A stretch of DNA of 32,661 bases from a virus (IMGVR_UViG_3300048593_000385), one strand, 5' to 3'; numbered from the stretch's first letter, positions 6,951 through 24,879 are shown. Notes: generated by a model not told the origin, from the sequence alone. Program-made: numbers and translations.

Positions 6951-9449
6951 CTAGGCAAAAAAATCATCGAGGGTTGCGACTTCTTCAGTTTTCCAACTGA
7001 TGGCGTCGCAGATTAAAGTCAGTGGCTTTAGAAACGCAGCATTAAACTGACGGTCGTAGTCAATATGTTGTTCCAAATTAAATTGTTTGGGCAATACATT
7101 TAGGACGGCAAATACATCCTCGTGCAGAGGATTGGGAACTTTCATGTAACAATACTTGATTTTATCTCCGTCCGTAATTGCATTATACTTCTTTTCTAAA
7201 TTATTGTCAAGCAGTAATTTGTTAAAAAGTAGAGCACCACGAACATGGATTGGTGTTCCGCCACGATAGATATGAGTATCTGACTTGTAGTCAGTGAGAC
7301 TCGAGCATCCACGAGGCGAAGCGATTTCTTCAAAGGACAGCTTGCCAAATTCTTCACGGAAACCGTCAATGAATTGAATCAATTCAAGTTGAGTTCCACG
7401 AATAATAATCTGCAACGCTTGCCTAATTTTATTGCGACAGACTTCAGGAGTCGAGGATTTGACAGCCTCAATACCCATAATCTTCAGATCAGGTTCTTTA
7501 TACCGAACACCCTCATTGTCCCAGACATTCAGAATGTATCGTTTCTTGGCAGTCCAGATACCACGGTCGGCAATCGCTTCGCGCTTCATCTTCATGTTCT
7601 GCATGTAGGCATTGGTATTGTCAGCTAATTCCTGAAACTTCTGATCGATAAAAGGTTCGAGCTTTTGTTGGCAGACTTTGTCGAGGAAGTTGACAGTTGT
7701 TTCTTTGTCTTTGTTTGGGCAAGCCATGTCAACCAAATCGCCGAGACGAAGATAGATCGAGTCAGTATCCGAAGCAATAACGAAACGCTTCTCTTTGCCT
7801 GTCAGCTTCGCAAGATAGGCATCCATCGCATCACCAACATACCGAATACCATACTGACCAGAGAAGGTGATAGCTTCAGCAAACTGCAGCTTATACCAAC
7901 GGAAGTAGACGTTACCAACTGCACCGAACAGAGAGTTGAGAATAATCTTCTTGGCCATCTGCATGTTATTACAGCGAGAGATCTCTGCTTCAATCGCCTT
8001 AGACTTACCTTCAGACTGCTTGCGCTTTTTCGCATCAGTCATCTTGTTCTTCCACATCGTTCGGTCGGCATACATCTTTTCGACCAGCTGCGGGAACATA
8101 CCTTTCTCGTTCTTGTTCCAGACTGTTCCGTTGGCAGCAATCGCAAGATTTTCTTCTCGAGCATCCTCAAGTATGCTTGGTTTGATTCCATCCTTGAGTA
8201 GATTGTCGATTGAAGGGAAGTTAGGCAGCATACCAGCATAAGTCTCAGGAGACATATTATATTGAACAATCAGGCTGGGATACAGAGAGTTAACGTCAAA
8301 CGAAGCCACCCAATCGTGCATGCCAGTGACAGGCTCAAGAACGAATGCGCCTTCAAACTGATTCTTCTTTTCTCCACGCTTGATCTGATTGACAACCATC
8401 TTCTGCTCGAGCATGAAGTTATGAATGATCACATCCCAGAGCAACACAGAAGTAAAGGAATCTTCAAGATTGACCTTGGCATCATACGCGATCGCATACG
8501 CGAGCTCGATGAGAGCCATCTTCTCGTCAAGTTTCTTGACCAGTTCTACATCTCGAATGTTGTATTCGATGAACCGCTGGGGATCCTGCTTATACATACC
8601 AGCAAGAGTCTCAAATTCACTGTAGTCAATCTTACGTTCGCCAAGTTCGACATAAGCAATATGGTCGAGGCGATAGTTTTCTTGCTTGGTATATGTAAAC
8701 TTGGTGTAGAGACGTTGATAGTCTAGAGCAGATATGCCCATGATGTCATACGACTGTTGCTCGCGACCCCACATCTCAACCGACTTTTCTTTGAGCCAAC
8801 CCCAAGGCGAAAACCCAGCAGCATACTCATCGCCGAACAGCTTCTTGTAACGATTGACCAGATACGGAATATCGAAGAACTCAATATACCAGCCAGTCAT
8901 GACATCAAAGTCAAACTGTTTCCAGAACTTCATGAATGCACGAAGCATACTCAGTTCGTCATCGTAGAGGAGCGCTTCTACATCATCGCGATGCTTCTTA
9001 TATTGTAGAGTGGTGAACACATAATACTTGCCGCGAAACTCAACGGTGATGGCGTTGATAGCCTTGTCCGCTTTGTCAGGATTTGGGAATCCATCATCAG
9101 ACTCGACCTCGATATCCAGATCGGCAACACGAATCTGATCACGATCGTATTGAATTTCTCCTGGATAATAATCGTTCAAGAATGCATAGACCCACTTGTC
9201 CATGCCATAGATCTCGAATCCTGAGACTTCGTCATAAGTTTTGGTAAATTCTCTGGCTTCCTTGATAGAATCAAATTCTATCTTGTCGACCATAGCTCCA
9301 GAGATTGTTCTGTATTCTGGATCTGGCTTCCTTGACGGAACGAACAGATATGGGTTGTATGGAATTTTGGTCGAAACCCTGCGACCATCTTCATATCCAC
9401 GAAGAAAAATAAAATTACCACGCAATGCTGCGTTGGTGTAGAATCGCAT
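6951..9449 (-). CDS. 43: family B DNA polymerase (T4 gp43)
   Basis: Exo I DIE, FDIPY, YNIRD; polymerase motifs FDVNSLYPS, KIILNSLFG, SDTDS, KKRY; C-terminal clamp-binding TLDDFF. Confidence 0.97.
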   Translation of the reverse strand: MRFYTNAALRGNFIFLRGYEDGRRVSTKIPYNPYLFVPSRKPDPEYRTISGAMVDKIEFDSIKEAREFTKTYDEVSGFEIYGMDKWVYAFLNDYYPGEIQYDRDQIRVADLDIEVESDDGFPNPDKADKAINAITVEFRGKYYVFTTLQYKKHRDDVEALLYDDELSMLRAFMKFWKQFDFDVMTGWYIEFFDIPYLVNRYKKLFGDEYAAGFSPWGWLKEKSVEMWGREQQSYDIMGISALDYQRLYTKFTYTKQENYRLDHIAYVELGERKIDYSEFETLAGMYKQDPQRFIEYNIRDVELVKKLDEKMALIELAYAIAYDAKVNLEDSFTSVLLWDVIIHNFMLEQKMVVNQIKRGEKKNQFEGAFVLEPVTGMHDWVASFDVNSLYPSLIVQYNMSPETYAGMLPNFPSIDNLLKDGIKPSILEDAREENLAIAANGTVWNKNEKGMFPQLVEKMYADRTMWKNKMTDAKKRKQSEGKSKAIEAEISRCNNMQMAKKIILNSLFGAVGNVYFRWYKLQFAEAITFSGQYGIRYVGDAMDAYLAKLTGKEKRFVIASDTDSIYLRLGDLVDMACPNKDKETTVNFLDKVCQQKLEPFIDQKFQELADNTNAYMQNMKMKREAIADRGIWTAKKRYILNVWDNEGVRYKEPDLKIMGIEAVKSSTPEVCRNKIRQALQIIIRGTQLELIQFIDGFREEFGKLSFEEIASPRGCSSLTDYKSDTHIYRGGTPIHVRGALLFNKLLLDNNLEKKYNAITDGDKIKYCYMKVPNPLHEDVFAVLNVLPKQFNLEQHIDYDRQFNAAFLKPLTLICDAISWKTEEVATLDDFFA

Positions 9450-9521: not shown

Positions 9522-10274
9522 TCAATCGACGGAATATTCTTTGTCTTCAAAATTGGTCAAGTAGTCATTCAATTGGTTGATTTTTCCGAGATTGCGCAGA
9601 GCCTTATAGACCAGATTCTCTTGCGCAAATTCTCCAGCTTTCTGGATTCCTGAAGATCTCATCTGGTGGAGTCTACCCTTCAGCTTTTTAATTTGCTGTG
9701 CCTTCTCTTTTGTTCCGTAGGCAAAGTCGCTTGTCATATGATCAATCTGTTTCGCATAATACTTAATCTTGCGAATTAGATTCGGATTTGAATACATCTG
9801 TTTCACATCGTGCTTCGATGGCTTCGAGATCCACTTGTTGGTGATCAGAGAGTAAATTCCTTGAGCATCTTTTGGTTCTTGTTTTTCATCCTGAGCATAC
9901 AACTCAACAGGATATCCTTTGATTCGGATATTGGGATGGTACTTTGCCCAGAGAATCTTCTTGTCGTATAACCAGTCGTCGAGAATGTCTGGGTCTTTGA
10001 TGATGTTTTCCATATCAACAACAAGATGCAGGTCGATGTCCGAGAAGTCGGTATAGTTGTAGTTACAGTTCCCGCCAATCAGAATGATGTCTTTGATGAC
10101 ACTGAACGGAATACGAGAGAAGTCTGCCCAGTCATGTGCGATTCGAATCAGAGCAGCATGAATCTTTGGGTCTAGCTTTTCTTTCTGCCAGATCGCAGGA
10201 TTGAGCTGATCATGATACTGCAGAGTAGTATCGAATTTAGATCTTTCGTTCAGGAATTCTGTAAATTTGAGCAT
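9522..10274 (-). CDS. Pol-beta-superfamily nucleotidyltransferase with a capsid-targeting-like N-terminus (MLKFTEFLNE)
   Basis: hGG...SDIDLH motif (LIGGNCNYNYTDFSDIDLHLVVD), third acidic residue in VELYAQ; late promoter 28 nt upstream. Confidence 0.8.
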   Translation of the reverse strand: MLKFTEFLNERSKFDTTLQYHDQLNPAIWQKEKLDPKIHAALIRIAHDWADFSRIPFSVIKDIILIGGNCNYNYTDFSDIDLHLVVDMENIIKDPDILDDWLYDKKILWAKYHPNIRIKGYPVELYAQDEKQEPKDAQGIYSLITNKWISKPSKHDVKQMYSNPNLIRKIKYYAKQIDHMTSDFAYGTKEKAQQIKKLKGRLHQMRSSGIQKAGEFAQENLVYKALRNLGKINQLNDYLTNFEDKEYSVD

Positions 10275-10299
10275 GGGGATCTTTCGTGTTAGAACTCGT

Positions 10300-10315
10300 T
10301 ATATTTATAAATATA
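10300..10315. promoter_or_regulatory. bidirectional T4 late promoter: perfect 16-bp palindrome TATATTTATAAATATA
   Basis: TATAAATA on + (10306-10313) and on - (10302-10309), between the divergent nucleotidyltransferase and lysis genes. Confidence 0.8.
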
Positions 10316-10347
10316 TGAGAATTGAAATTAACAAGAAGGCTTGTCTC

Positions 10348-10863
10348 ATGTTTAGTATGATCCCTTTTCCTGTCAAAATTATGGCAATCATATTCATTGT
10401 TTTAGGTGCTGCTGGTTGGGGCTATATGAAAGGCTCTGCTCATGCAGAAGTCGAACTGGCCAACTACCAAGCCAAAGCCGAAAAACAAATCTCAGAATTA
10501 AAAACAGAAAACACTACCATCTCTAGTCAGGTCACGACAGAATTTGTCGATCGGGTCAATACCATTCACGACAAAGAAACAGTCTATCGCGATCGTCTGG
10601 TAAACCTCGGCGAGAGCACCAACAACCTTTCCAATGGTTGGGTTGAGCTTCATGATGCCGCTGCTAAACTTGCTGATCCAGATGCGCAACTAGCTGGTGA
10701 CAAATCTCCATCTGGCATCATGGACAACTCGGCGCTTGCTGTTGTGATGGGCAACTATTCAGTATGCCATCAAAACAAACAGCAGTTGATTTCTCTTCAG
10801 AAATGGATCACAGACAACAAGGCAGCTGTCGATAAAGTAAATGCAGAGGGAGCGAAAAAATGA
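10348..10863 (+). CDS. probable inner-membrane spanin (Rz-like)
   Basis: N-terminal TM (IMAIIFIVLGAAGWGY), coiled-coil, late Cys (NYSVCHQN); ATGA-coupled to a lipoprotein; start 10348 chosen over 10267. Confidence 0.7.
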   Translation: MFSMIPFPVKIMAIIFIVLGAAGWGYMKGSAHAEVELANYQAKAEKQISELKTENTTISSQVTTEFVDRVNTIHDKETVYRDRLVNLGESTNNLSNGWVELHDAAAKLADPDAQLAGDKSPSGIMDNSALAVVMGNYSVCHQNKQQLISLQKWITDNKAAVDKVNAEGAKK

Positions 10864-11033
10864 AGAAGCTGATTTATATTATTCCTTTGGTAATTGCTTT
10901 GTCGGGATGCGCAGGAAAAACCAGACTTGTACCTCAAGCATATATGCCAGAGCCACCAGAGATTCTGATGAAGTCTCCTAAAGAATTATCCACAATCAAA
11001 CAACCAACAAAAACAGAAGGAACTCCAAAATGA
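10860..11033 (+). CDS. probable outer-membrane spanin lipoprotein (Rz1-like), absent from the ORF track
   Basis: MKKLIYIIPLVIALSG|CAGKTRLVPQAYMPEPPEILMKSPKELSTIKQPTKTEGTPK*; lipobox LSGC, Pro-rich, ATGA overlaps at both ends. Confidence 0.75.
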   Translation: MKKLIYIIPLVIALSGCAGKTRLVPQAYMPEPPEILMKSPKELSTIKQPTKTEGTPK

Positions 11034-11239
11034 AAACTCTCTTAGAAAAAATTAAGAGCTTCTTTATCTTCTTAGATGTCAATCATGACGGCAAAGTTTC
11101 AGCCGAAGATGCTGAAATTGCGAAGGCATTGGCAGAAAAGAAATTCAAAGAAGCCAACGAAATTATTAATGATGTGAAGGCAGAAGTTGCTGTTGTGAAA
11201 GAGAAAGTTAAAAAAGCAACAAAAAAGAAAGCAAAATAA
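11030..11239 (+). CDS. small EF-hand-motif protein with a Lys-rich tail
   Basis: DVNHDGKVSAED matches the 12-residue EF-hand loop. Confidence 0.65.
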   Translation: MKTLLEKIKSFFIFLDVNHDGKVSAEDAEIAKALAEKKFKEANEIINDVKAEVAVVKEKVKKATKKKAK

Positions 11240-11688
11240 TGAACCCTCTATCATTTTTTTCAACACCACCCATTACTTCATTCGAGCAGTTAGAGCTTGA
11301 AAAGGGCAAGATTCAGCTAACCATCATGAAGATGGCTGCTACAATCCTTGGTATTATCATGCTAGCGGTTGTATTCATTTTTCTCATCGGTATGTTCATG
11401 CCAAACGAACTTATCGACAACAACGAAATCTTCAAAATCATTGGACCTGCATTCTCTACTATCGTAGGTGCTTTTGTCGGTGCGTTTGCTACTATGATGG
11501 GTATGAAGGTGACTGAGCTTGATACAAATGTCAAGACTCAAGAACTTGGCAAGACTGATCACAAGGCACTAGCAGAAGCGCATGTGATTAATGCACAAGC
11601 AGAGTCGATTGAAGCTGATACTGAAATTAAGCTAATGGCTGCTATTGACAAGTATCAAGATTCAGATGAAGACCACGGTCCATTCTAA
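11239..11688 (+). CDS. probable holin (two TM helices, acidic C-terminal tail)
   Basis: TMs ILGIIMLAVVFIFLIGMFM and IIGPAFSTIVGAFVGAFATMMG; immediately upstream of the endolysin. Confidence 0.6.
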   Translation: MNPLSFFSTPPITSFEQLELEKGKIQLTIMKMAATILGIIMLAVVFIFLIGMFMPNELIDNNEIFKIIGPAFSTIVGAFVGAFATMMGMKVTELDTNVKTQELGKTDHKALAEAHVINAQAESIEADTEIKLMAAIDKYQDSDEDHGPF

Positions 11689-11698
11689 GGAACAGCAC

Positions 11699-12883
11699 AT
11701 GACAAAACTAACAGAACATTTCGCTCTAGAAGAGATGACCGTCTCTCCAACTGCAAAGAAGTTGGGGATCCCTAATACGCCTACTGCTGAACACATCGAG
11801 AACATGCGCTATTGCTGCGAAAAGATTCTCGAACCTGTTCGTGCTAAGTTTGGTCCAGTCACAATCAACTCTTCGTATCGTGCTCCTCTTGTCAACAAAG
11901 CAGTTGGCGGTTCGAAGACTTCACAACACGTCAATGGCCAAGCTATCGACTTTGAAGTCAAAGGTGTTGACAACAAGAAGGTCGCTGACTGGGTTGCAGA
12001 CAATCTTGAATTCGACCAAGTCATCCTTGAGTTCTACACTGCTGGTGATAAGAACTCTGGCTGGGTTCACGCTTCGATCAAGAAGGAAGGCGGAAACCGC
12101 AAGCAGCGTCTGATTGCTAAGAAGTCGAAGGCTGGCGGGACTCAGTACGTTCCAGTTGCGGACTTTGATCCATCAACGACTCGCGAAGCAGGAGCTCCTC
12201 AAGTAGCTGGTCCAGCAATTGCGAAGCAGTCGGCTGCTCCTCTAAAGGCAGCTGTGGCTGTTGCGGGTCTTGGTCCATTAGCTGCTCTCCAAACTAAATG
12301 CGGCATTGGTGCCGATGGTAAATGGGGTCCAGGTACTTATAAGGCTGCACGCGACTTCTTCAAACTGACCAATGGTCAAGCAGCTCACTTCTTCGGACAG
12401 TGCGCTCACGAGTCAGGTGGCTTTAAAGTCTTCTCAGAAAATCTTAACTATTCGGATAAGGGTCTCAATGGAATATTTAAAAAGTATTTTCCAACGATTG
12501 CGTCAACAGCTGGTTACGCTCGTAAGCCTGAAAAGATTGCGAACAAAGTCTATGCCAACAGGATGGGCAATGGACCTGAAAGTTCGGGCGATGGTTTTAA
12601 ATATCGAGGTCGAGGTCCGATCCAGTTAACTGGCAAGGATAACTACACTGCATTTGCTGCTTCGGTAGGCAGACCTGATGTTCTAACAAATCCAGATATT
12701 GTTGCTGGCGAGTTGGCTTTCGAATCAGCTCTGTGGTTCTTCAAAAAGAACAATCTGTTTGCGATTGCAGACAAAGGTGTATCCGACGCTGTCATTACTC
12801 AGATTACAAAACGAGTAAATGGTGGGACGCACGGTCTAGATGATAGACTTAAGAAAACCAAACAATACTTTGCTTGGGGATAA
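11699..12883 (+). CDS. modular endolysin: Peptidase M15A + Ala-rich linker/PG-binding-like segment + GH19 glycosidase
   Basis: SSYR..VNKAVGGSKTSQHVNGQAID...WVH (M15 Zn site); ADGKWGPGT; HFFGQCAHESGGF, YRGRGPIQLTGKDNY, RVNGGTHGLDDR (GH19); AAGGA RBS before ATG 11699. Confidence 0.9.
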   Translation: MTKLTEHFALEEMTVSPTAKKLGIPNTPTAEHIENMRYCCEKILEPVRAKFGPVTINSSYRAPLVNKAVGGSKTSQHVNGQAIDFEVKGVDNKKVADWVADNLEFDQVILEFYTAGDKNSGWVHASIKKEGGNRKQRLIAKKSKAGGTQYVPVADFDPSTTREAGAPQVAGPAIAKQSAAPLKAAVAVAGLGPLAALQTKCGIGADGKWGPGTYKAARDFFKLTNGQAAHFFGQCAHESGGFKVFSENLNYSDKGLNGIFKKYFPTIASTAGYARKPEKIANKVYANRMGNGPESSGDGFKYRGRGPIQLTGKDNYTAFAASVGRPDVLTNPDIVAGELAFESALWFFKKNNLFAIADKGVSDAVITQITKRVNGGTHGLDDRLKKTKQYFAWG

Positions 12884-12923: not shown

Positions 12924-13400
12924 TCACTTAGTTTTAGTTTCTGCTAAGAATTCTGCAGGATCTGTAATTTCAATTTTCTTTGGCTTATTAGCCTCAGGAA
13001 TAATTGCTTCCAGACCAACACGCAGAATGCCATTGAGAAGCTGAGCACCATTAACTTCGACATTATCTGCCAAAGTAAACGTGCGAGTAAACGGACGTTG
13101 GGCAAGACCTCTGAACACAAATTCGCCTTCATCGGTTGATTGTGTGTTCCCTTTGATAACCAGTTTATCACCAGCCAACTCAAGTTCGATATCCTGCTTG
13201 CAGAAACCTGCAACAGCCATCTCGATGACATAACGATTGTCATCAATCTTCTTGATATTGTATGGGGGATATTTGATTTCTTGGGCCATCTTAACTGATT
13301 GCTCAGCAGCTTCAGAGAGTTTCTTGACGATTGGATCGAAACCGACTAGATAACGATCGAATGGAAATTGTAGGAATGTGTTCCCAAATTCAAATGCCAT
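12924..13400 (-). CDS. hsp20: small heat-shock protein (Hsp20/IbpA family)
   Basis: YPPYNIKK, IEMAVAGF, RGLAQRPFTRTFTLAD, NGIL, PEANKPKKIEI. Confidence 0.95.
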   Translation of the reverse strand: MAFEFGNTFLQFPFDRYLVGFDPIVKKLSEAAEQSVKMAQEIKYPPYNIKKIDDNRYVIEMAVAGFCKQDIELELAGDKLVIKGNTQSTDEGEFVFRGLAQRPFTRTFTLADNVEVNGAQLLNGILRVGLEAIIPEANKPKKIEITDPAEFLAETKTK

Positions 13401-13412
13401 AGTTACCTCCTC

Positions 13413-13730
13413 TTACTTGCAGCGCGAAAATAGTGCGCGATTTGAAAAGAATTCGTTCTTTGACAGAGCTGAGCTTTTGTCAGCATCAGCAACAGCAAAA
13501 AACTTTTTCTTGACAGTGCAACCAGTTTGCTCTAGTTCTAGAGTAGAGATTGTGCCATTTGCGTTTGTATCGAGACGAGCAAACAATTGTGTTCTCCAAG
13601 AACCAGCAACTGGAGTTACAACTTGAGTTGCAGCAATTTGTTTTAGTTCTGAGGCAGAGAGTTCGCCGTTTGCAAAGGCAGGGGTTGCAAGCAGAGTTGC
13701 GGCAATAATGCCGATAAGAGTATTTTTCAT
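13413..13730 (-). CDS. exported EF-hand pair protein
   Basis: Signal peptide MKNTLIGIIAATLLATPAFA|N; loops DTNANGTISTLE and DADKSSALSKNE; two Cys. Confidence 0.75.
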   Translation of the reverse strand: MKNTLIGIIAATLLATPAFANGELSASELKQIAATQVVTPVAGSWRTQLFARLDTNANGTISTLELEQTGCTVKKKFFAVADADKSSALSKNEFFSNRALFSRCK

Positions 13731-13796
13731 TATGTGCTCCTTATTAAGCGAGTTTTTAATTTTGATGTCCCATTAGGCGACATCGTTTTATTTAGT
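13731..13796 (-). promoter_or_regulatory. late-type promoter (ACTAAATA 13789-13796) plus structured leader with a ROSE-like RNA thermometer hairpin
   Basis: Leader: GATGTC-gcctaatgg-GACATC hairpin, then CTCGCTTAATAAGGAG, where the U(U/C)GCU motif pairs with the SD. Confidence 0.6.
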
Positions 13797-13800
13797 GGAA

Positions 13801-14625
13801 TTAACCAAAAAATGAATCTAGTGCATTTTCAGCAGCCTGAATCTTGTTCGGCTTTACCATACGGCTATCGCGCAGCTTGAGTTCGGCGTGTCCTGTTGTT
13901 TCACGAATATACATCTTACAATATTCAGGGAAGGCATCGGCAATAATCTGAATGCTCTTCTGGACATATTCCTTGGTGCGAATATCCTGAAGACCACCTT
14001 CTTCTTTGTAGTAGCGAGACTTGACAGTATACTTGTCTAGACGAACGACAGCTTCATTCTTGATGTATTGACGAATAGAATATTCATAATCTTCGCCGTG
14101 GTTAGTGATACGTTCAAGGAAGTCGGCGTGTTCAACAATGACACCAAACATAGAAGCGATGATGTAGCAGAGCTCTGTATAAACACGATCCTTCATAAAG
14201 TATGCGTTGGCAGCTGCATAGATACCGAAGGTTTTGGCCCCAGCTTTTTCGCAAGCCTCGAAACCCTGGATGATAATTTCTTTTTCAAGATCCTCAACCC
14301 GACCAAGCTTCTGTTCGCTGATCTTTACCTGCACTTCTTCGATGTCATCATCAAACATCATCAGCTTTGTGCCTTCAGGATACCAACGCTCAATAAAGTT
14401 GCGCTGCGCACCAATAGTAGGAACACCTCGAACAATCTCAATATCCTTGGCGTAAGGATTATCCTTCAACGCATTCGCATATCGATCATACTCGCCTTCT
14501 TCCTGATCATTGACAAAGATCTTAATCTTGGCAGGGTCAATATTATACGACTCAAGAACTTTCAGAGTCTTGTTCTGAACAGTCTTTTCGCGATGATAAG
14601 AAGGGATAGCAATACAATAATCCAT
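13801..14625 (-). CDS. GT-A fold glycosyltransferase of the TET/JBP-associated type
   Basis: IAIPSYHR, QRNFI, MMFDDDI (DxD), GEDYEYS, EEGGLQ; adjacent to the dioxygenase; C-terminal ALDSFFG. Confidence 0.8.
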   Translation of the reverse strand: MDYCIAIPSYHREKTVQNKTLKVLESYNIDPAKIKIFVNDQEEGEYDRYANALKDNPYAKDIEIVRGVPTIGAQRNFIERWYPEGTKLMMFDDDIEEVQVKISEQKLGRVEDLEKEIIIQGFEACEKAGAKTFGIYAAANAYFMKDRVYTELCYIIASMFGVIVEHADFLERITNHGEDYEYSIRQYIKNEAVVRLDKYTVKSRYYKEEGGLQDIRTKEYVQKSIQIIADAFPEYCKMYIRETTGHAELKLRDSRMVKPNKIQAAENALDSFFG

Positions 14626-14635
14626 AATATATCCT

Positions 14636-15970
14636 TTAGAAGAAATTCTCTAGAGAGTTTTCCATAACCTGATTGACGATTCCGTCCTCATCTTCAAGAC
14701 CTTTCGAGGCCAAGAAGTCACCCCACTCTTGGCTTTCCCACATCGAAGGCGAGACACCGTTCCAGAGTGGACGCTGCATAGGATGGTCTTTGTTTGTTCG
14801 ACGAGTCTCAACGAACTCGCGACGAGCCGACTCATACTGCCAAGATCTTAGATCTAGCATTTTTTCGCGGAAGTAGCAGACCAAAGAGATACGCTCAGCT
14901 TCTGCATTAGTTAGAACGATTGGGGTGTTCCCGTGAATAATTTCGTGATTGTTTACCAAAAGTAGATCTCCAGGACGGACGTTGACTGCAATCCTGAGTT
15001 CTGGAAAAACCAGATAGCCACCTGTATAATCACCCGATCCAACGACCAGCAGATTACTCAGACCACTATCAAGATCGCCAGCATCACGGTGCGCAGCAGT
15101 GCGGAATGATTTATTGACTGTGATTGTTGTAAAGACAGTCTCAGGAACAAGGAAGCGAGGGTCAATTTTATCTGCAGCTGCACGCTGATTGCTCCACTTC
15201 AAGGGAAGCAGTTCTTTGTAACCACGATTAAGTGACTGTAGAAACGGAAATGATTTTTCGAAAGTTTCGAAGTTCTTCTCGGTGAAAGAAGTGGCGCGAC
15301 CCCAAGGAATACGAGGATAGCGATCGTACCAGCCAGCAACACCAGAGAACACAGACTTAGCATAGTTCGTCACGCTGATCCACTGATCATGAACCAGTTT
15401 GGCCTGACGAATCTGTTCATCGTCAGATTGCTTGACCAGTTCGTAAGCCCACTTGTCGAACCAACCAAAATACTCTGGATACTTTTCGCAGACTTTGCTA
15501 CGAAGCCAGACCCGACCACGAGTTTCGTCGGACGGAGCATTGTTGCCATATTTGAGTTTGATTGTTTCAAGAGTTTCGTCGGCAACGATTGCGTTGCGAG
15601 GACGGAGAAACCAGCTAAGAACTTCTTCTTCGTAGTCAGTCACCCACTCGCGACCGCCACGATGTTCAGTCGACAGCATTTCGCCACGAGGTCCAGCTGC
15701 CAGTCCACGATTCTGACTTTCTACTGCAGCTTCGCGTAGACCAGCGTAAGCGCCATCCTGTTCTTCTTGACTGAAGAAGTTCTTGCGGAACTTAAATGCG
15801 ATGCGATTTTCATCTACACCATCTTCGGTGGAACCAGTAAGGGCAGAACCTGACGGAAAGTAACCATCATAATCTTCTTCAACTAGAAGATCGTAATGAC
15901 TCTCATCAAGAAACTGACCAAGTAAATGCTCGCAGTTGTGTTTTTCTGTGGCAACAATTACCTTTACCAT
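14636..15970 (-). CDS. TET/JBP-family 2OG-Fe(II) 5-methylpyrimidine dioxygenase
   Basis: FTTITVNKSFRTAAHRDAGD (HxD), GGYLVFPE, PGDLLL, IIHGNTPI (distal His), RISLVCYFRE (2OG-binding Arg); C-terminal SLENFF. Confidence 0.85.
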   Translation of the reverse strand: MVKVIVATEKHNCEHLLGQFLDESHYDLLVEEDYDGYFPSGSALTGSTEDGVDENRIAFKFRKNFFSQEEQDGAYAGLREAAVESQNRGLAAGPRGEMLSTEHRGGREWVTDYEEEVLSWFLRPRNAIVADETLETIKLKYGNNAPSDETRGRVWLRSKVCEKYPEYFGWFDKWAYELVKQSDDEQIRQAKLVHDQWISVTNYAKSVFSGVAGWYDRYPRIPWGRATSFTEKNFETFEKSFPFLQSLNRGYKELLPLKWSNQRAAADKIDPRFLVPETVFTTITVNKSFRTAAHRDAGDLDSGLSNLLVVGSGDYTGGYLVFPELRIAVNVRPGDLLLVNNHEIIHGNTPIVLTNAEAERISLVCYFREKMLDLRSWQYESARREFVETRRTNKDHPMQRPLWNGVSPSMWESQEWGDFLASKGLEDEDGIVNQVMENSLENFF

Positions 15971-15999: not shown

Positions 16000-16028
16000 A
16001 TTATATATGCAAAGAGAAAAAATGTCAA
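16000..16028 (-). promoter_or_regulatory. perfect-consensus sigma70 promoter for the dioxygenase-GT pair (TTGACA-17-TATAAT)
   Basis: -35 at 16023-16028, -10 at 16000-16005; TAAGGAG RBS downstream. Confidence 0.85.
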
Positions 16029-16441
16029 GCACTTTCTTCATTTATAAATGAAGAATACGAAGTATCCCAAGGAAAGAGAACAGACTTCAAGTTAGGTTCC
16101 TCGTAGTTTGGACCCTTTTTAATTTTGCCATCTTCTCGGTAAAGTGGCTTCCCGTCTTCACCAAGCTTGGTCATATTTGACCGCTGGACTTCAGCAAAGC
16201 ATTTATCTAAATCAATACCGAATGCCAGACCAGCACCATAAGTGACATAGAGAATATCTGTAAGAGCATCAGCCACTTCAACAATATCATTGTCCTTGAG
16301 AGCTTCGCGAAGTTCTTTTAGTTCTTCGGCAATCAATTTTACTCTTAGAGCTTGAACATTTCGTTTGGGAAGTTTTGGAGTATCCTTTACTTCTTGTCCA
16401 AACACACTCATAAATTCACGAACCATATTAAAATTTGTCAT
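16025..16441 (-). CDS. MazG-like / PRA-PH-family all-alpha NTP pyrophosphohydrolase
   Basis: LIAEELKEL...EVADALTDILYVTYG, EVQRSNMTK, REDGKIKKG; start 16441 TAATG-coupled to regA. Confidence 0.85.
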   Translation of the reverse strand: MTNFNMVREFMSVFGQEVKDTPKLPKRNVQALRVKLIAEELKELREALKDNDIVEVADALTDILYVTYGAGLAFGIDLDKCFAEVQRSNMTKLGEDGKPLYREDGKIKKGPNYEEPNLKSVLFPWDTSYSSFINEESA

Positions 16442-16833
16442 TATTTCTTGTTTCCGATACTGTATTTCGCCAAGCACTGCCAATCACCCTTTTCCTTGTA
16501 GGAGATGATTTTAATGTGCGACACAGGAACAACAGGTTCCTTTGTCTTTTCTTTGTCAACAACCTCAATCAGACCCCATTCTTCAAGTAGATTGGCAATA
16601 GTATTTCTACGAGCCTCATCATTTTCACAGAAGTCTGTGTTCTTTTTACCATCAAGCAGGAACAATTCCTTGAAGTGCATGATGTAGTATTTGCCTTGTT
16701 TGTGTAGGATATGACAAGATTGATAGAGAGTGTTGTTCTTTTTTGAAGCAACCCCAATGCGTGTCAGTGTTTCCTTAACGAGAAGGAAATTATCTGGGTC
16801 TATGAGTTTAACCTCTACTAAATCTTCAATCAT
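16441..16833 (-). CDS. regA: translational repressor RegA
   Basis: FLLVKETLTRIGVAS, LYQSCHILHKQGKYYIMHFKELF. Confidence 0.96.
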   Translation of the reverse strand: MIEDLVEVKLIDPDNFLLVKETLTRIGVASKKNNTLYQSCHILHKQGKYYIMHFKELFLLDGKKNTDFCENDEARRNTIANLLEEWGLIEVVDKEKTKEPVVPVSHIKIISYKEKGDWQCLAKYSIGNKK

Positions 16834-16837
16834 ATTT

Positions 16838-17224
16838 TTATCCGCCAGTTTCGAGTTTCTTTTTTATATTCTGGATTTGTTCAACAGTAAGAACAGAGAG
16901 GGCTTCCTCAGCTCTCTTGATGCTGTACCCATAATATTGGGCAATATCTTTAGCATCTTGAGAAACAACTGTTTTTGCTTGCTTCGAAAACCTTTTCCTT
17001 CTATTTATTGAATTCAGAAAGTAGTCAAACTGTTGGATATTGGATAGATGGAAGTTCTTATTCATCTCGTTTGCATAAAGAACAGAGTCTTCAAAATAAG
17101 AAAGAGTCTTATTTGTTATCCAAGGATTATAATCCTTCTCTGCCAATTCTGGATTAGCTGAATTACGAATAATATCTTTCTTATTGTAAGAAACGTCAGT
17201 TATGTAGTCAAAGGGATTGCTCAT
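16838..17224 (-). CDS. 62: clamp loader small subunit (T4 gp62)
   Basis: YANEMN, QFDYFLNSI..RKRFSK, YYGYS; synteny 45-44-62-regA. Confidence 0.92.
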   Translation of the reverse strand: MSNPFDYITDVSYNKKDIIRNSANPELAEKDYNPWITNKTLSYFEDSVLYANEMNKNFHLSNIQQFDYFLNSINRRKRFSKQAKTVVSQDAKDIAQYYGYSIKRAEEALSVLTVEQIQNIKKKLETGG

Positions 17225-18159
17225 TTGAAGGAGCAGGTTGACATAATTTCCAGGAATGCTGCTGCCAGATTGATTTCTGCATTAGCAACAAACGCTGCCT
17301 GATACTGATATTTTGCCAGAATCAAAATAAGATCAGGAATACTGGATGGCACCATCAAGTCATAGGCTGCATCATATAGACTCTTGAAGAGAACATCAGA
17401 GTCGATGTCAGAGTTCTCGCCGACCCACTTACGAACAGCAGGGAAATCGCCATTCTTCATGAACCCGATGAGAGTCTTGAACGCTTCTTCCGAGAAGTTG
17501 GCTAGGATACCTTCATCGATGGCACCAGTAACCGAATAACGCTGAAGTTCGTTTAGAACACGACGCCAGTCTGGATAATGGCTGGTGATGACAGCAGCAA
17601 CAACCTTCTTGTCAAAGGGAACACCCTCGCCTTCAAGAATACCGCATGCACGCTTGAGGAACTGCGCAGCTAGGCTGGGCAGGTCGGCTTTCTTAATCTT
17701 GAAGTCGACAACCGAACAACGAGACTGAAGCGGATCAATGATACGATTCTTGAAGTTGCAGGTCATAATGAACCCACAGTTCGCCGAATATTCTTCCATG
17801 AAATTGCGGAGAGCTGGTTGGGTTGAGTTGGCATTCAGATAGTCAGCCTCGTCGAGAATGACATACTTGCGACCGCCAGTGAAACTGACAGCCGATGCAT
17901 AGTTACGAATTTCGTTTCGAAGAACGTCAATGTTACCATTCATTGAGCCATTGATCACGATATAATCGCAACCAAGTTCTTCGAGCATAGCCTTGGCTAT
18001 CGTAGTCTTACCGCAACCAGCAGGGCCAGAAAGAAGAAGATTAGGTACATTTTTTTGGTTTACAAACTCCTGGAAAGTTTTCTTCAGTGTATCGGGAAGG
18101 ATACAGTCGTCAACGGTCTTAGGGCGATACTTCTCGACCCAAAGGAAATCTTCGCTCAT
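17221..18159 (-). CDS. 44: clamp loader large subunit (T4 gp44)
   Basis: LWVEKYRP, GPAGCGKTT, ILDEAD, LQSRC. Confidence 0.96.
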   Translation of the reverse strand: MSEDFLWVEKYRPKTVDDCILPDTLKKTFQEFVNQKNVPNLLLSGPAGCGKTTIAKAMLEELGCDYIVINGSMNGNIDVLRNEIRNYASAVSFTGGRKYVILDEADYLNANSTQPALRNFMEEYSANCGFIMTCNFKNRIIDPLQSRCSVVDFKIKKADLPSLAAQFLKRACGILEGEGVPFDKKVVAAVITSHYPDWRRVLNELQRYSVTGAIDEGILANFSEEAFKTLIGFMKNGDFPAVRKWVGENSDIDSDVLFKSLYDAAYDLMVPSSIPDLILILAKYQYQAAFVANAEINLAAAFLEIMSTCSFK

Positions 18160-18255: not shown

Positions 18256-18915
18256 TTAAGCGAAAGTTGAATTGCTCTCAGTTGCAATCCAATAAACTAC
18301 GCTGTCAGAAGAGAAGCGAGAGATCTTCTTGCTCGATACTTCAACGCTATAGTTGCCAGGAAGAATCTTCGAAAGATATTCAGGCTTAAACACAGCGGTA
18401 AATTCTCTATCGCAAGTTCCAAGTTCTTCATTGAATTGATCACAACCAACATCCTTGCTCGCAAAGGCACGCATATACAGCTTTCCACCTTCGCCAACGA
18501 TGGCAATTTCAGGAAGCTGAAGAACACCAGTTGCCTTGACCACCGAGCTAAGAGCTTCTTGCGTCAGATTAAAGACAACCTCTGCTTCAGGAAACTGAAT
18601 TTCCTTGGCAGGTGCAGCAACGATGACATTTTCTTGGCAGAAGCGATACACAACCTTCTGCTTGCCACCCTTGATGATCACAGCGCTGTCATCAAATTCC
18701 AGTTCTGGATCCTTAAACAAAGAAATAACTGACAGGAATCGGTTGAGATCATAGATACAGAAGGACTTTTCGAAATTATCTGAGATAGTTGCCTTCGAGA
18801 GCAGAGTCTTGAGTGGCGAGATAGTCGAAAGAGTATTTCCTTCTGTAATCTTGATGCCTTGGTTAATAGAGGCAAAGTTCTTAAGAACAGACAGGGTATT
18901 TTCACTTAACTTCAT
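18256..18915 (-). CDS. 45: sliding clamp (T4 gp45)
   Basis: MKLSENTLSVLKNFASINQ, IYDLNRFL, YWIATE; a GGAG RBS favours ATG 18915. Confidence 0.95.
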   Translation of the reverse strand: MKLSENTLSVLKNFASINQGIKITEGNTLSTISPLKTLLSKATISDNFEKSFCIYDLNRFLSVISLFKDPELEFDDSAVIIKGGKQKVVYRFCQENVIVAAPAKEIQFPEAEVVFNLTQEALSSVVKATGVLQLPEIAIVGEGGKLYMRAFASKDVGCDQFNEELGTCDREFTAVFKPEYLSKILPGNYSVEVSSKKISRFSSDSVVYWIATESNSTFA

Positions 18916-18950
18916 AATATTATTCTCCATAATTAATCAACGGTAAAATC

Positions 18951-19944: not shown

Positions 19945-20574
19945 TTATACCTTTAAATTAACGTCGACGTTGAGATTGATAGCTTGGCCAGCTTTTGCAT
20001 AAGCTACAGTTGAGCTTGTGAGATCTGCTTGCATAGCAGTACGTTGTATTTGATTAGAGAAGTCTACGTTACGCATCTTAGTAGATGCGAGACCAGAACC
20101 TGCTGTGTATTGAGATACGTCGAAGTTTGCACCAAGGAACACTACTTCCCACTTTAGCTTTTCAAGTAGCTTGACCTTTTCCTTGATCTTGGCTTGGTTG
20201 TATTCCTTTGAAGAGTTTTCTTTGCCGTCAGTCATGATAACAACGACAGTACGCTCGGCGTTGTTTTCGAGTGCTCGATCCATCACATTCGCTGCAGCAT
20301 CGAACAGTGGTGTCATACCTGAAGGCGAGACTACATCGTGCGCCAGAGGCTCGTAGTATGCGATAGACTGGTTTTCTACCAGCTCTTCGAGACGCACCGA
20401 AGTGCCGTTCGTATCGAAAGCGGTCACGTTAACGTTGCCTTCGATCTTTTCTTTCTTTAGACCATTAATATATTCATTGATAGAATCGATAGCATGTGTC
20501 CATCGTTCGCCAGACATAGAGCCTGAGCGATCGAGTGCGACATATACCGATAGAGGCTTATTCTTTTTTGCCAT
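19945..20574 (-). CDS. stand-alone von Willebrand factor A domain protein
   Basis: MIDAS DRSGSM, GMTPLFDA, IMTDGKENSS, FLGAN. Confidence 0.88.
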   Translation of the reverse strand: MAKKNKPLSVYVALDRSGSMSGERWTHAIDSINEYINGLKKEKIEGNVNVTAFDTNGTSVRLEELVENQSIAYYEPLAHDVVSPSGMTPLFDAAANVMDRALENNAERTVVVIMTDGKENSSKEYNQAKIKEKVKLLEKLKWEVVFLGANFDVSQYTAGSGLASTKMRNVDFSNQIQRTAMQADLTSSTVAYAKAGQAINLNVDVNLKV

Positions 20575-20576
20575 AA

Positions 20577-20900
20577 TTAATCCTTATGTTCAGTGTCGTG
20601 TACGTGGAGTTGCATGATGGCGTAGTGAATAACCTTCATAAGATCTTTTCGCCATTCTTTTGGGTCGCCCTTGCGACCATATCGTTGCGTGTACTTCATC
20701 ATGTTCCCGATATTGAAACCAGTGCCATGACCAGCATCAATAATGAATTCTGTTGCTTGGAATTTATTTCGGGAATAATGCTGAGCGTAAGTAGCATCGA
20801 CGTAAGACTTAATCTCTTTGAGAGTTTCGCCTTCGTTGTATTTATAGTTTGTTGGAGGAAGAGCATCCACCAAATTCAATGTAGTTTTCAATTTATCCAT
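20577..20900 (-). CDS. DUF3310-like conserved T4-like phage protein (possible nucleotide-handling enzyme)
   Basis: TYAQHYS, GFNIGNMMKYTQRYGRKG, DLMKVIHYA. Confidence 0.65.
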   Translation of the reverse strand: MDKLKTTLNLVDALPPTNYKYNEGETLKEIKSYVDATYAQHYSRNKFQATEFIIDAGHGTGFNIGNMMKYTQRYGRKGDPKEWRKDLMKVIHYAIMQLHVHDTEHKD

Positions 20901-21381
20901 TATTCGCTTTCTTCATCTTCTTTTTGAAATACATTTCACGTTTCAACTTAGACAAATGATCGAACATGTTCTTGCCCATCATATGGTCATATTCATGTTG
21001 AAACACCCGAGCAGTCATACCCTCAAACCTTTGAGTATGACCTTTACCATTAACCTGAATAAATCGAGCAATAATCCAAACAGGACGCTTGACCTTTACT
21101 AGATCTCCAGGAAAAGAGAGACACCCTTCTTCCAACTCAATTGTTTCTTCTGAAACTTCGAGAATCTTTGGATTGATGATGACAACAGGAGTTTCTGTGA
21201 ACATCGTAAAGATTTGAAGGGGAATGCCAACCTGATTGGCAGAGAGACCTAACCCACGATTCTCATGCATGGTTTCGATTAGGTCGTTGGAAAATTGTTG
21301 AATATCTAATTGCGGACTTATGAAGTTAAACTTCTCGCATTCTTGTCTCAAAACTGGATCATTACTATCAACCAATTTCAT
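20893..21381 (-). CDS. def: peptide deformylase
   Basis: GLGLSANQVG, EGCLS, QHEYDH. Confidence 0.95.
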   Translation of the reverse strand: MKLVDSNDPVLRQECEKFNFISPQLDIQQFSNDLIETMHENRGLGLSANQVGIPLQIFTMFTETPVVIINPKILEVSEETIELEEGCLSFPGDLVKVKRPVWIIARFIQVNGKGHTQRFEGMTARVFQHEYDHMMGKNMFDHLSKLKREMYFKKKMKKANNG

Positions 21382-24297: not shown

Positions 24298-24846
24298 TCA
24301 ATCCTCAATAAAGTTTTCAAGAGCCTTCTTCTCTTTCTTCTTCTTGTTCTTTTCAATATTGTCTTCGAAGGTAGAGATGAACCTCTGAGTATTCTCATGA
24401 ACCTCAGGAGTAATTGCATGGAATGCTTCGTCAGCGCCATGGATGAAGTGCTGATTGTTTATGATCATATTGTCCATAGCTTTGTATTTGATATACTGCT
24501 GTTTCTTTTCCTTCTGAATTCTATGAATGAAGGCATGCCAGACAACCTGAGTAAAATACGAGAATGGATTGGTAGATTTCTCTGGTTTGAAACTGCGAAT
24601 ATATTGAATGCAGTTTTCGATAGCATCTCCAATCATTTCTTCCTTGTAGGAATAGTTCATGAAGTTTGGTTTGTTGGATAATTTAGTGGCGATCTTGTAG
24701 AAACATTCGCCGATGTAGTTAGGGATGCGAGGATACTCATCACCAGATTCTTCTGCTTCATTGCAGAGATCTTTGTATTTCTTCATTTCTTCGAAGAAAC
24801 GCTTATTATCAATGTAGTACGCACCTGTGCGTCTTTTGCCTGCCAT
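24298..24846 (-). CDS. 55: late transcription sigma factor (T4 gp55)
   Basis: YIGECFYKIA, PNFMNYSYKEEMIGDAIENC, NPFSYFTQ, RIQKEKKQ; C-terminal LENF. Confidence 0.95.
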   Translation of the reverse strand: MAGKRRTGAYYIDNKRFFEEMKKYKDLCNEAEESGDEYPRIPNYIGECFYKIATKLSNKPNFMNYSYKEEMIGDAIENCIQYIRSFKPEKSTNPFSYFTQVVWHAFIHRIQKEKKQQYIKYKAMDNMIINNQHFIHGADEAFHAITPEVHENTQRFISTFEDNIEKNKKKKEKKALENFIED

Positions 24847-24879
24847 AATCAATCCTTATATTGCGGAGATCCAATTATC

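Follow-up and report, generated by a model that had tools for sequence, protein, structure and literature searches.

Predicted sliding-clamp-binding tails on a TET/JBP dioxygenase and a TET-associated glycosyltransferase of T4-like phages

In phage T4, the sliding clamp gp45 is loaded onto DNA by the clamp loader gp44/62. Known clients of gp45 in T4 and RB69 are the DNA polymerase gp43, the late sigma factor gp55 and gp33; the T4 ligase binds via an internal LDFLF loop, and its peptide has a dissociation constant of 10.7 uM (PMC2988020, PMC6212786, PMC7892883; structures 1B8H and 6DRT). T4 gp43 ends in SLDFLFG and T4 gp55 in SLDFLY. Here we describe similar tails on a TET/JBP dioxygenase and a TET-associated glycosyltransferase (TAGT) encoded in IMGVR_UViG_3300048593_000385, a stretch of viral DNA of 32,661 nucleotides (the whole stretch is called the window below). 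The tails are real, conserved and probably functional, and would make the two enzymes a new class of clients of a known clamp-docking system.

A glycosyltransferase on the clamp has a precedent. T4 alpha-glucosyltransferase, pulled down with a C-terminal His tag, binds to and copurifies with gp45 and is proposed to act along replication (PMC13216743), as a clamp-bound TAGT might. The T4 enzyme has a GT-B fold, uses pre-replicative hydroxymethylcytosine and ends in EQFDIITK without a terminal motif; unlike in T4, the first base-activating step is here predicted to be itself post-replicative and tailed. The dioxygenase resembles clade C1 of the phage T-dioxygenases (5mYOX), TET/JBP enzymes without a C5-methylase that are encoded beside glycosyltransferase or kinase/AADT genes (PMC13229309). 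According to the same paper, ParB activates related clade C1 enzymes and is proposed to hold the enzyme on DNA, some ParB-less members are inactive for reasons left unexplained, and the rationale for post-replicative modification is a mystery. In contrast to the ParB-dependent enzymes, the dioxygenase described here has a long form (430-480 aa in its group) and a clamp-type tail, and no ParB was found in the window or in four relatives (G001, G002, G003, G005; the ParB control HTVC112P matched). None of the 5mYOX enzymes in parts 1-2 of 4 of Dataset S11, which have about 210-340 aa, has the motif at its end; 'gp45' is absent from the main text and the supplementary PDF of that paper (PMC13229309).

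The succession of dioxygenase and glycosyltransferase is also known from cytosine-modifying clusters of C5-methylase, TET and glycosyltransferase (PMC8256090; bioRxiv 10.1101/2023.12.21.572611) and from trypanosome JBP and base J. Unlike in those clusters (clades A/B), no C5-methylase gene is adjacent here, so the target is likely thymine. In the portions covered, clamp or gp45 genes figure in the two cluster papers just as neighbouring genes, and Burke 2021, Pyle, Lee 2021 and PMC13326640 describe no tail. An earlier note on this DNA had considered clamp docking undescribed for phage TET/JBP enzymes. For the tails of TET/JBP and TAGT this agrees with our literature search, which yielded no article describing a clamp motif for TET/JBP, TAGT or amino-acid:DNA transferase (ADDT), most subscription papers and several supplements being outside its reach; a DNA glucosyltransferase on gp45, the T4 alpha enzyme, was already published.

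Tails in the window and in homologues

By Pfam and PHROG profiles, the window belongs to the genome of a T4-like phage with gp23, UvsY/W, gp55, gp47/46, gp45, gp44/62, RegA, gp43, UvsX and gp41. Like T4 and RB69, it thus encodes the clamp and its loader together with the polymerase and the late sigma factor, and the tailed enzymes have their cognate gp45 and gp44/62 in the same genome. The relevant features are:

14636-15970, minus strand: TET/JBP (5-methylpyrimidine) dioxygenase, long T4-like form, 444 aa (PF12851, 91.6 bits, cut-off 34.9)
14639-14656, minus strand: dioxygenase tail SLENFF, residues 439-444, predicted gp45-binding motif (from homologue conservation)
13801-14625, minus strand: TAGT, 274 aa (PF20691, 45.7 bits, cut-off 27.5)
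13804-13824, minus strand: TAGT tail ALDSFFG, residues 268-274, predicted gp45-binding motif (from homologue conservation)
6951-9449, minus strand: gp43 DNA polymerase (PF00136, phrog_262)
6954-6974, minus strand: gp43 tail TLDDFFA, the reference clamp-binding motif for this phage
18256-18930, minus strand: gp45 sliding clamp, the predicted receptor (PF09116, phrog_223)
17221-18159, minus strand: clamp loader gp44 (jointly with gp62: PF21328, PF16790; phrog_168, phrog_225)
16838-17224, minus strand: clamp loader gp62 (profiles as for gp44)
24298-24852, minus strand: gp55 late sigma factor (phrog_234)
24301-24324, minus strand: gp55 tail ALENFIED
16025-16483, minus strand: MazG-like nucleotide pyrophosphohydrolase, tail-less negative control (PF01503, phrog_671)

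Directly before the stop codon the dioxygenase reads VMENSLENFF, TAGT AAENALDSFFG, gp43 EVATLDDFFA and gp55 KKALENFIED. The earlier note, whose span 13801-14660 includes the TAGT gene but just the final 25 bases of the one for the dioxygenase, had claimed that these four C-termini share a pattern seen at no other C-terminus in the window, and both statements hold. The pattern [STAN][LI][DE]xF[FLI] occurs once in each of the four proteins, at the end, and as a terminal pattern on exactly these 4 of the 48 open reading frames (ORFs; non-overlapping, ATG start, at least 50 aa). Random internal cut points gave 0 matches in each of 1000 draws; however, since the pattern was drawn after the motif had been seen, this null flatters it, and the real evidence is the tests with homologues and control phages. 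With gp55 a caveat applies, as the terminal pattern fits only 2/36 of its relatives, 35/36 carrying the less strict [GAS][VIL]ExF with an acidic stretch behind it. Three hand-made patterns (strict, tight or core, and loose) were used across the analyses, which leads to small differences in counts, and ORFs cut by locus ends were excluded.

Two trivial origins of the tails were considered and discarded. A contig from another sequencing run spans 13700-15616 with 49 substitutions and no gaps, which makes an assembly frameshift at the gene ends unlikely. Duplication of the tail between the dioxygenase and TAGT genes was rejected, as their codons differ.

The earlier note had proposed motif conservation across homologues as a check. 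The tail is kept in 118/120 dioxygenases (the best 120 of 2733 matches) and in 114/120 TAGTs (the best 120 of 398); one dioxygenase homologue has an unrelated end. The motif is conserved though the linker in front of it varies in sequence and in length (14-21 aa in the dioxygenase, 8-16 aa in TAGT): the L and the last F have an entropy of 0.2-0.4 bits, compared with 1.8-3.4 bits for the four positions -5 to -2 of the linker. Glutamine is outside the five commonest residues at every position from -4 to +5, save for 4/83 at -3 in TAGT. Among 150 dioxygenase representatives at 50% identity, the tight motif was present in 15/23 with the long-form WNG extension versus 7/127 of the others, the latter being a mix of short forms, fragments and long forms missed by the filter. 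In five related contigs (65-162 kb, 81-233 ORFs each) the core pattern was found on 2, 3, 2, 2 and 5 ORFs, compared with null means of 0.04-0.34; 13 of these 14 ORFs are gp43, dioxygenase, TAGT, ADDT or gp55, and one is a baseplate protein. In two contigs near the TET match, L066 and L068, the reading frame of the dioxygenase is broken, and its C-terminal part forms a separate 76-aa ORF that bears the tail; this could be due to a frameshift, an intron or an assembly error.

The AlphaFold2 model of the dioxygenase has a coil at residues 423-439 and a short helix at 440-443, with a pLDDT (predicted local distance difference test) of about 65. The same build has been described for the motif of T4 gp55 (PMC2988020). 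As with the T4 and RB69 clients, the motif is short and hydrophobic-acidic, follows a variable linker and is common to the polymerase; unlike those, the clients here are base-modifying enzymes.

Distribution with gp45 and co-variation with the polymerase

A survey of 80 viral loci plus the window used the strict pattern for the dioxygenase and the loose one for ADDT. The tail was present on the dioxygenase (74/78), TAGT (14/14), gp43 (4/4), ADDT (37/46), a GT-B transferase (4/4) and a 190-260 aa family of unassigned proteins (4/4). It was absent from the small-molecule neighbours GATase (0/26) and MazG (0/45) and from a 290-aa unassigned family (0/21). In 77 TAGT-centred viral loci, TAGT was tailed in 74/77, the dioxygenase in 72/75 and gp43 in 9/10. 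A second TET clade of T4-like phages is associated with a C5-methylase and was sampled from 71 loci around Melnitz; here TET (64/65), gp43 (53/54) and TAGT (10/12) are tailed. The ParB-linked TETs of 36 loci have no tail (0/33), nor do their TAGTs (0/7).

Cultured T4-like phages with a tailed TET are DLP6, C48C1 and Melnitz. In seven other cultured phages (S-CBWM1, HTVC112P, P12024L, Cinna, Indlovu, Altadena and Lilmac1015) no match to the gp45 profile phrog_223 was found, the profile matching in 3/3 T4-like genomes as positive control, and their TETs are tail-less. A comparison of T4-like with clamp-less phages, which the earlier note had called for, thus came out in favour of docking. The long TET of S-CBWM1 is sister to the window's clade, on a long branch; since a search for TETs of this type returned only S-CBWM1, this control is one genome. 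In a quick tree the two tailed TET clades stand apart with tail-less lineages between them, and as the branches are long, two gains or repeated loss both fit. The trees omitted proteins below 380-400 aa and the last 12-30 residues.

The subtype of the tail provides a further argument. In 43 pairs of TET and an unrelated partner, L-F replaces F-F in both together (37 FF/FF, 6 LF/LF); in an overlapping set of 45 TET/TAGT pairs, 37 are FF/FF, 7 LF/LF and 1 is discordant. The gp43 subtype follows L-F in G001 and G008, and in Cr30 DLSxLF is common to gp43 and TAGT. As the pairs are related, the Fisher p of 1.6e-7 for the 43 pairs overstates the case; L-F TETs occur at five places in a 92-leaf FastTree, four of them with a concordant partner, and hence the independent switch events are few. 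A subtype that co-varies in this way points to a single receptor, used by the polymerase as well.

Probable docking on gp45 and its alternatives

Conservation, co-occurrence with gp45 and the joint subtype switch with gp43 and the partner enzymes all support the claim of the earlier note that both enzymes ride gp45, and we consider it likely that the dioxygenase and TAGT dock on the clamp by their tails. The window's gp45 (as a profile of 30 relatives) matches RB69 1B77/1B8H, T4 1CZD and 6DRT at E values of about 1e-34 to 1e-36. Modelling of the gp45 trimer with the tail, also proposed in the earlier note, gave weak support. With the last 30 residues of the dioxygenase the score was 0.55, against 0.16 for the best of three controls; the runs shared at least 67% of contacts, and the partner pLDDT was at least 45. 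The score mark was reached by 116/157 solved pairs and 2/215 mismatched pairs, and at 0.60 or under by only 18 solved pairs and both mismatches. As like clamp-peptide complexes have been solved (1B8H, 6DRT), the pass may be memory.

A number of observations weigh against docking or against its importance. The complex model gave no interface. The T4 consensus L-D-F-L-[F/Y/L] is not found here; the tails, that of the window's own gp43 included, read L-x-x-F-F. No clear change in gp45 matches the L-F subtype, with 4 L-F clamps among 54. Four TAGT homologues carry basic tails in place of the motif, the TET of Cr30 has a degenerate end (GATLF), and the TAGT of S-CBWM1 ends in ELEDLLP without a gp45 match. 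T4 alpha- and beta-glucosyltransferase and the TAGT of T6 have no terminal motif. Several DNA-acting enzymes of these cassettes are tail-less, namely the P-loop DNA kinase (0/45), the DenV-like glycosylase (0/38) and the C5-methylase of the Melnitz-type clade (0/64). Related T-dioxygenases are active on naked DNA in vitro with a preference for NTC or NTG (PMC13229309), phage TETs with the gene order polymerase-methylase-TET, likened to the tailed clade by this order, are active in E. coli without gp45, and the alpha/beta split in T4 is set more by expression and activity than by binding to gp45 (PMC13216743). Finally, gp26-like baseplate proteins end in a similar string in all 4 relatives with this gene; so do those of Cr30 and C48C1, which were named by likeness. 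These proteins (PF12322) have [ST]LxDFF- or GVESFF-like ends (L214:4285-4965; G002:127745-128458; G003:42131-42841; G005:32192-32917; L275:15641-16342).

Because baseplate proteins end alike, the pattern alone is not proof of clamp binding or of action on DNA. As the independent evidence of the latter for which the earlier note took it, the tail is weak for this reason; the Pfam and fold matches serve better. However, the gp26-like ends remain F-F in both L-F genomes (G001 and Cr30), and this string may thus be of other origin. GNAT proteins with GLDLF-like tails were tried as clients as well and rejected, as the fit was found in only 2/20.

In the mechanism we propose, gp44/62 would load gp45 onto DNA, and the dioxygenase and TAGT would dock by their tails in the hydrophobic pockets of the gp45 trimer. 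The dioxygenase would convert thymine to hydroxymethyluracil, to which TAGT would add a sugar, presumably in this order, to yield a base-J-like product. Modification would run on DNA that carries a loaded clamp, and tethering may bring processivity, hand-off between the enzymes and a bias to replicating phage DNA. By this, the clamp would take the targeting role held by a ParB-like partner in gp45-less phages. The bias to replicating phage DNA would arise only if clamps load mainly there and is speculative; the further extension in the earlier note, action at the fork only and thereby self/non-self discrimination, seems equally tentative to us. Its claim that modification lacks sequence specificity is doubtful in view of the NTC or NTG preference of related enzymes: as these work on naked DNA, catalysis need not require the clamp, and it need not be sequence-blind. 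A stronger version, in which gp45 is the required activator and address label of thymine hypermodification, with dioxygenase and glycosyl- or amino-acid transferase as a tool-belt in place of ParB, is rather unlikely. It would confine a base-J-like mark to DNA on which the loader of the phage itself has placed a clamp, and could explain why some ParB-less clade C1 enzymes are inactive in E. coli.

The alternative closest to this proposal accepts binding to gp45 and opposes only the extension to fork and self. The tails might simply raise processivity or local concentration on any clamp-loaded DNA, e. g. at nicks or at clamps that remain for late transcription; we give this almost an even chance. 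It is in line with the loading of gp45 at nicks and junctions and with its tracking along DNA in late transcription, and also with the activity of related enzymes in E. coli and on naked DNA. In addition, T4 beta-glucosyltransferase does not bind gp45 yet glucosylates about 40% of the sites, with expression governing the split (PMC13216743). A targeting role, on the other hand, fits with the findings that the tail is almost never lost in the window's clade, that it is borne by consecutive steps of the pathway, and that it occurs where ParB is absent.

A second alternative leaves docking as it is but changes the substrate. In the dioxygenase, H294, D296, H346 and R360 (HxD...H...R) are invariant in 78 aligned sequences, and its AlphaFold2 model matches NgTET1, CcTet and TET2; in TAGT, D92-D93-D94 and G177-E178-D179, a DxD-type acidic motif, are invariant in 60. 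The TAGT family was reportedly defined by Iyer et al. 2013. A search with PF00145 found no C5-methylase in the window or in four relatives that are 82-98% complete (the Melnitz control matched). In relatives, TAGT is exchanged for P-loop kinase 3 and ADDT beside the same dioxygenase, an arrangement that has been read as thymine (thymidine) modification (PMC8989533). The missing methylase and the kinase/ADDT neighbours make a path from thymine via hydroxymethyluracil to a glycoside likely. The dioxygenase also groups with the ParB-type enzymes and not with the C5-methylase-linked ones (SH-aLRT 89, quick tree); by family, neighbours and tree position, thymine in DNA is the likely substrate. That the substrate is instead 5-methylcytosine, produced by a host methylase or by one with its gene elsewhere, is rather improbable, even though tested T-dioxygenases oxidise this base too in vitro (PMC13229309), the best fold matches are 5-methylcytosine enzymes and the absence of a methylase rests on the window and four relatives.

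It is slightly less probable still that the tail is a structural end-cap or binds another phage protein, its likeness to gp43 being incidental. The gp26-like ends, the weak complex score and the tail-less DNA-acting enzymes speak for this. Yet the tail, preceded by linkers of variable length, is borne by at least four unrelated folds; in G001, G008 and Cr30 it switches subtype with gp43, which the gp26 tail does not; and the TETs of gp45-less phages are without it.

Very unlikely is binding to the host beta clamp instead of gp45. The L-F subtype SLEDLF resembles the end of the motif QL[S/D]LF (PMC9690074), and a string of the bacterial beta-clamp type, Q-x-x-L-F, closes TAGT and a P-loop protein of the P12024L group, whose phages lack gp45. 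The tails described here, however, have no Gln, match the phage's own gp43 and are confined to phages encoding gp45; the gp45-less phages have a different, Gln-bearing string or none. Two more proteins of the P12024L group, one of 154 aa and one a methylase, likewise have Q-x-x-L-F or QLEIF at the end, whereas its TET does not (L249:2671-3432, L253:7401-7952, L256:3196-3660; L086:17279-18674).

Chance likeness from AT-rich codons near gene ends has a negligible probability. In its favour, the pattern is a short one, defined only once the motif was known, and the random expectation for a looser version is 0.4-1.6 ORFs per relative contig. It is refuted, however, by the near-invariant tail between variable flanks; moreover, the codons differ among the four tails, and none of 228 ORFs matches in the P12024L loci.

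Other carriers, neighbouring genes and significance

Tail-bearing unassigned proteins occur in or near TET loci and are candidates for new DNA-acting steps. They comprise the 190-260 aa family, which has a faint methyltransferase match (L064:2008-2781, L071:1551-2333, L038:11524-12099), and proteins of 295 aa (L011:8946-9833), 541 aa (L150:2328-3953) and 294 aa (L155:5241-6125). In C48C1 a 294-aa protein (33480-34364), which we take to be Dam-like from its LRYPGGKS motif, follows directly after gp43 and ends in STLDAFFG; methylases can thus bear the tail. Four loci (L022, L023, L026 and L083, the last from Cr30) combine TET and ADDT with a myo-inositol-1-phosphate synthase, possibly for an inositol-bearing thymine modification; their ADDTs have no tail. 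Some TET/JBP genes carry misleading GenBank labels, i. e. 'SNF2 DNA repair protein' in KU682439, KF301602, MG450654 and MN698246, and queuine tRNA-ribosyltransferase in B5 mycobacteriophage and some Microbacterium entries.

The sequencing runs that contain the locus are mainly lake and freshwater metagenomes, with no RNA run listed among them; four were aligned with the window. In the window, the dioxygenase and TAGT genes lie behind RegA and the MazG-like gene, which is a frequent upstream neighbour of the dioxygenase. Just upstream of gp43, 9522-10274 (minus strand) encodes a 250-aa protein (phrog_36119) without a Pfam match; its string GGNCNYNY...SDIDLH presumably recalls a nucleotidyltransferase motif. 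A lysis block on the opposite strand (10267-12883, plus strand) contains spanin-like genes, an EF-hand-like 69-aa ORF, a membrane protein and a two-domain endolysin (peptidase M15 and glycoside hydrolase 19). Among the replication genes, at 12924-13730 and 19945-21381 (both minus strand), Hsp20, a secreted-looking EF-hand protein, a vWA protein, DUF3310 and a peptide deformylase are encoded.

A post-replicative thymine oxidase has no methyl mark that would lead it to phage DNA. If docking on gp45 is correct, the client list of gp45 would widen from replication and transcription to base modification. The tail could then serve to flag candidate DNA-acting genes, such as cluster 66 and the 295-aa protein of L011, with false positives such as gp26. 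Docking may also show how TET/JBP enzymes that are silent in screens can be activated.

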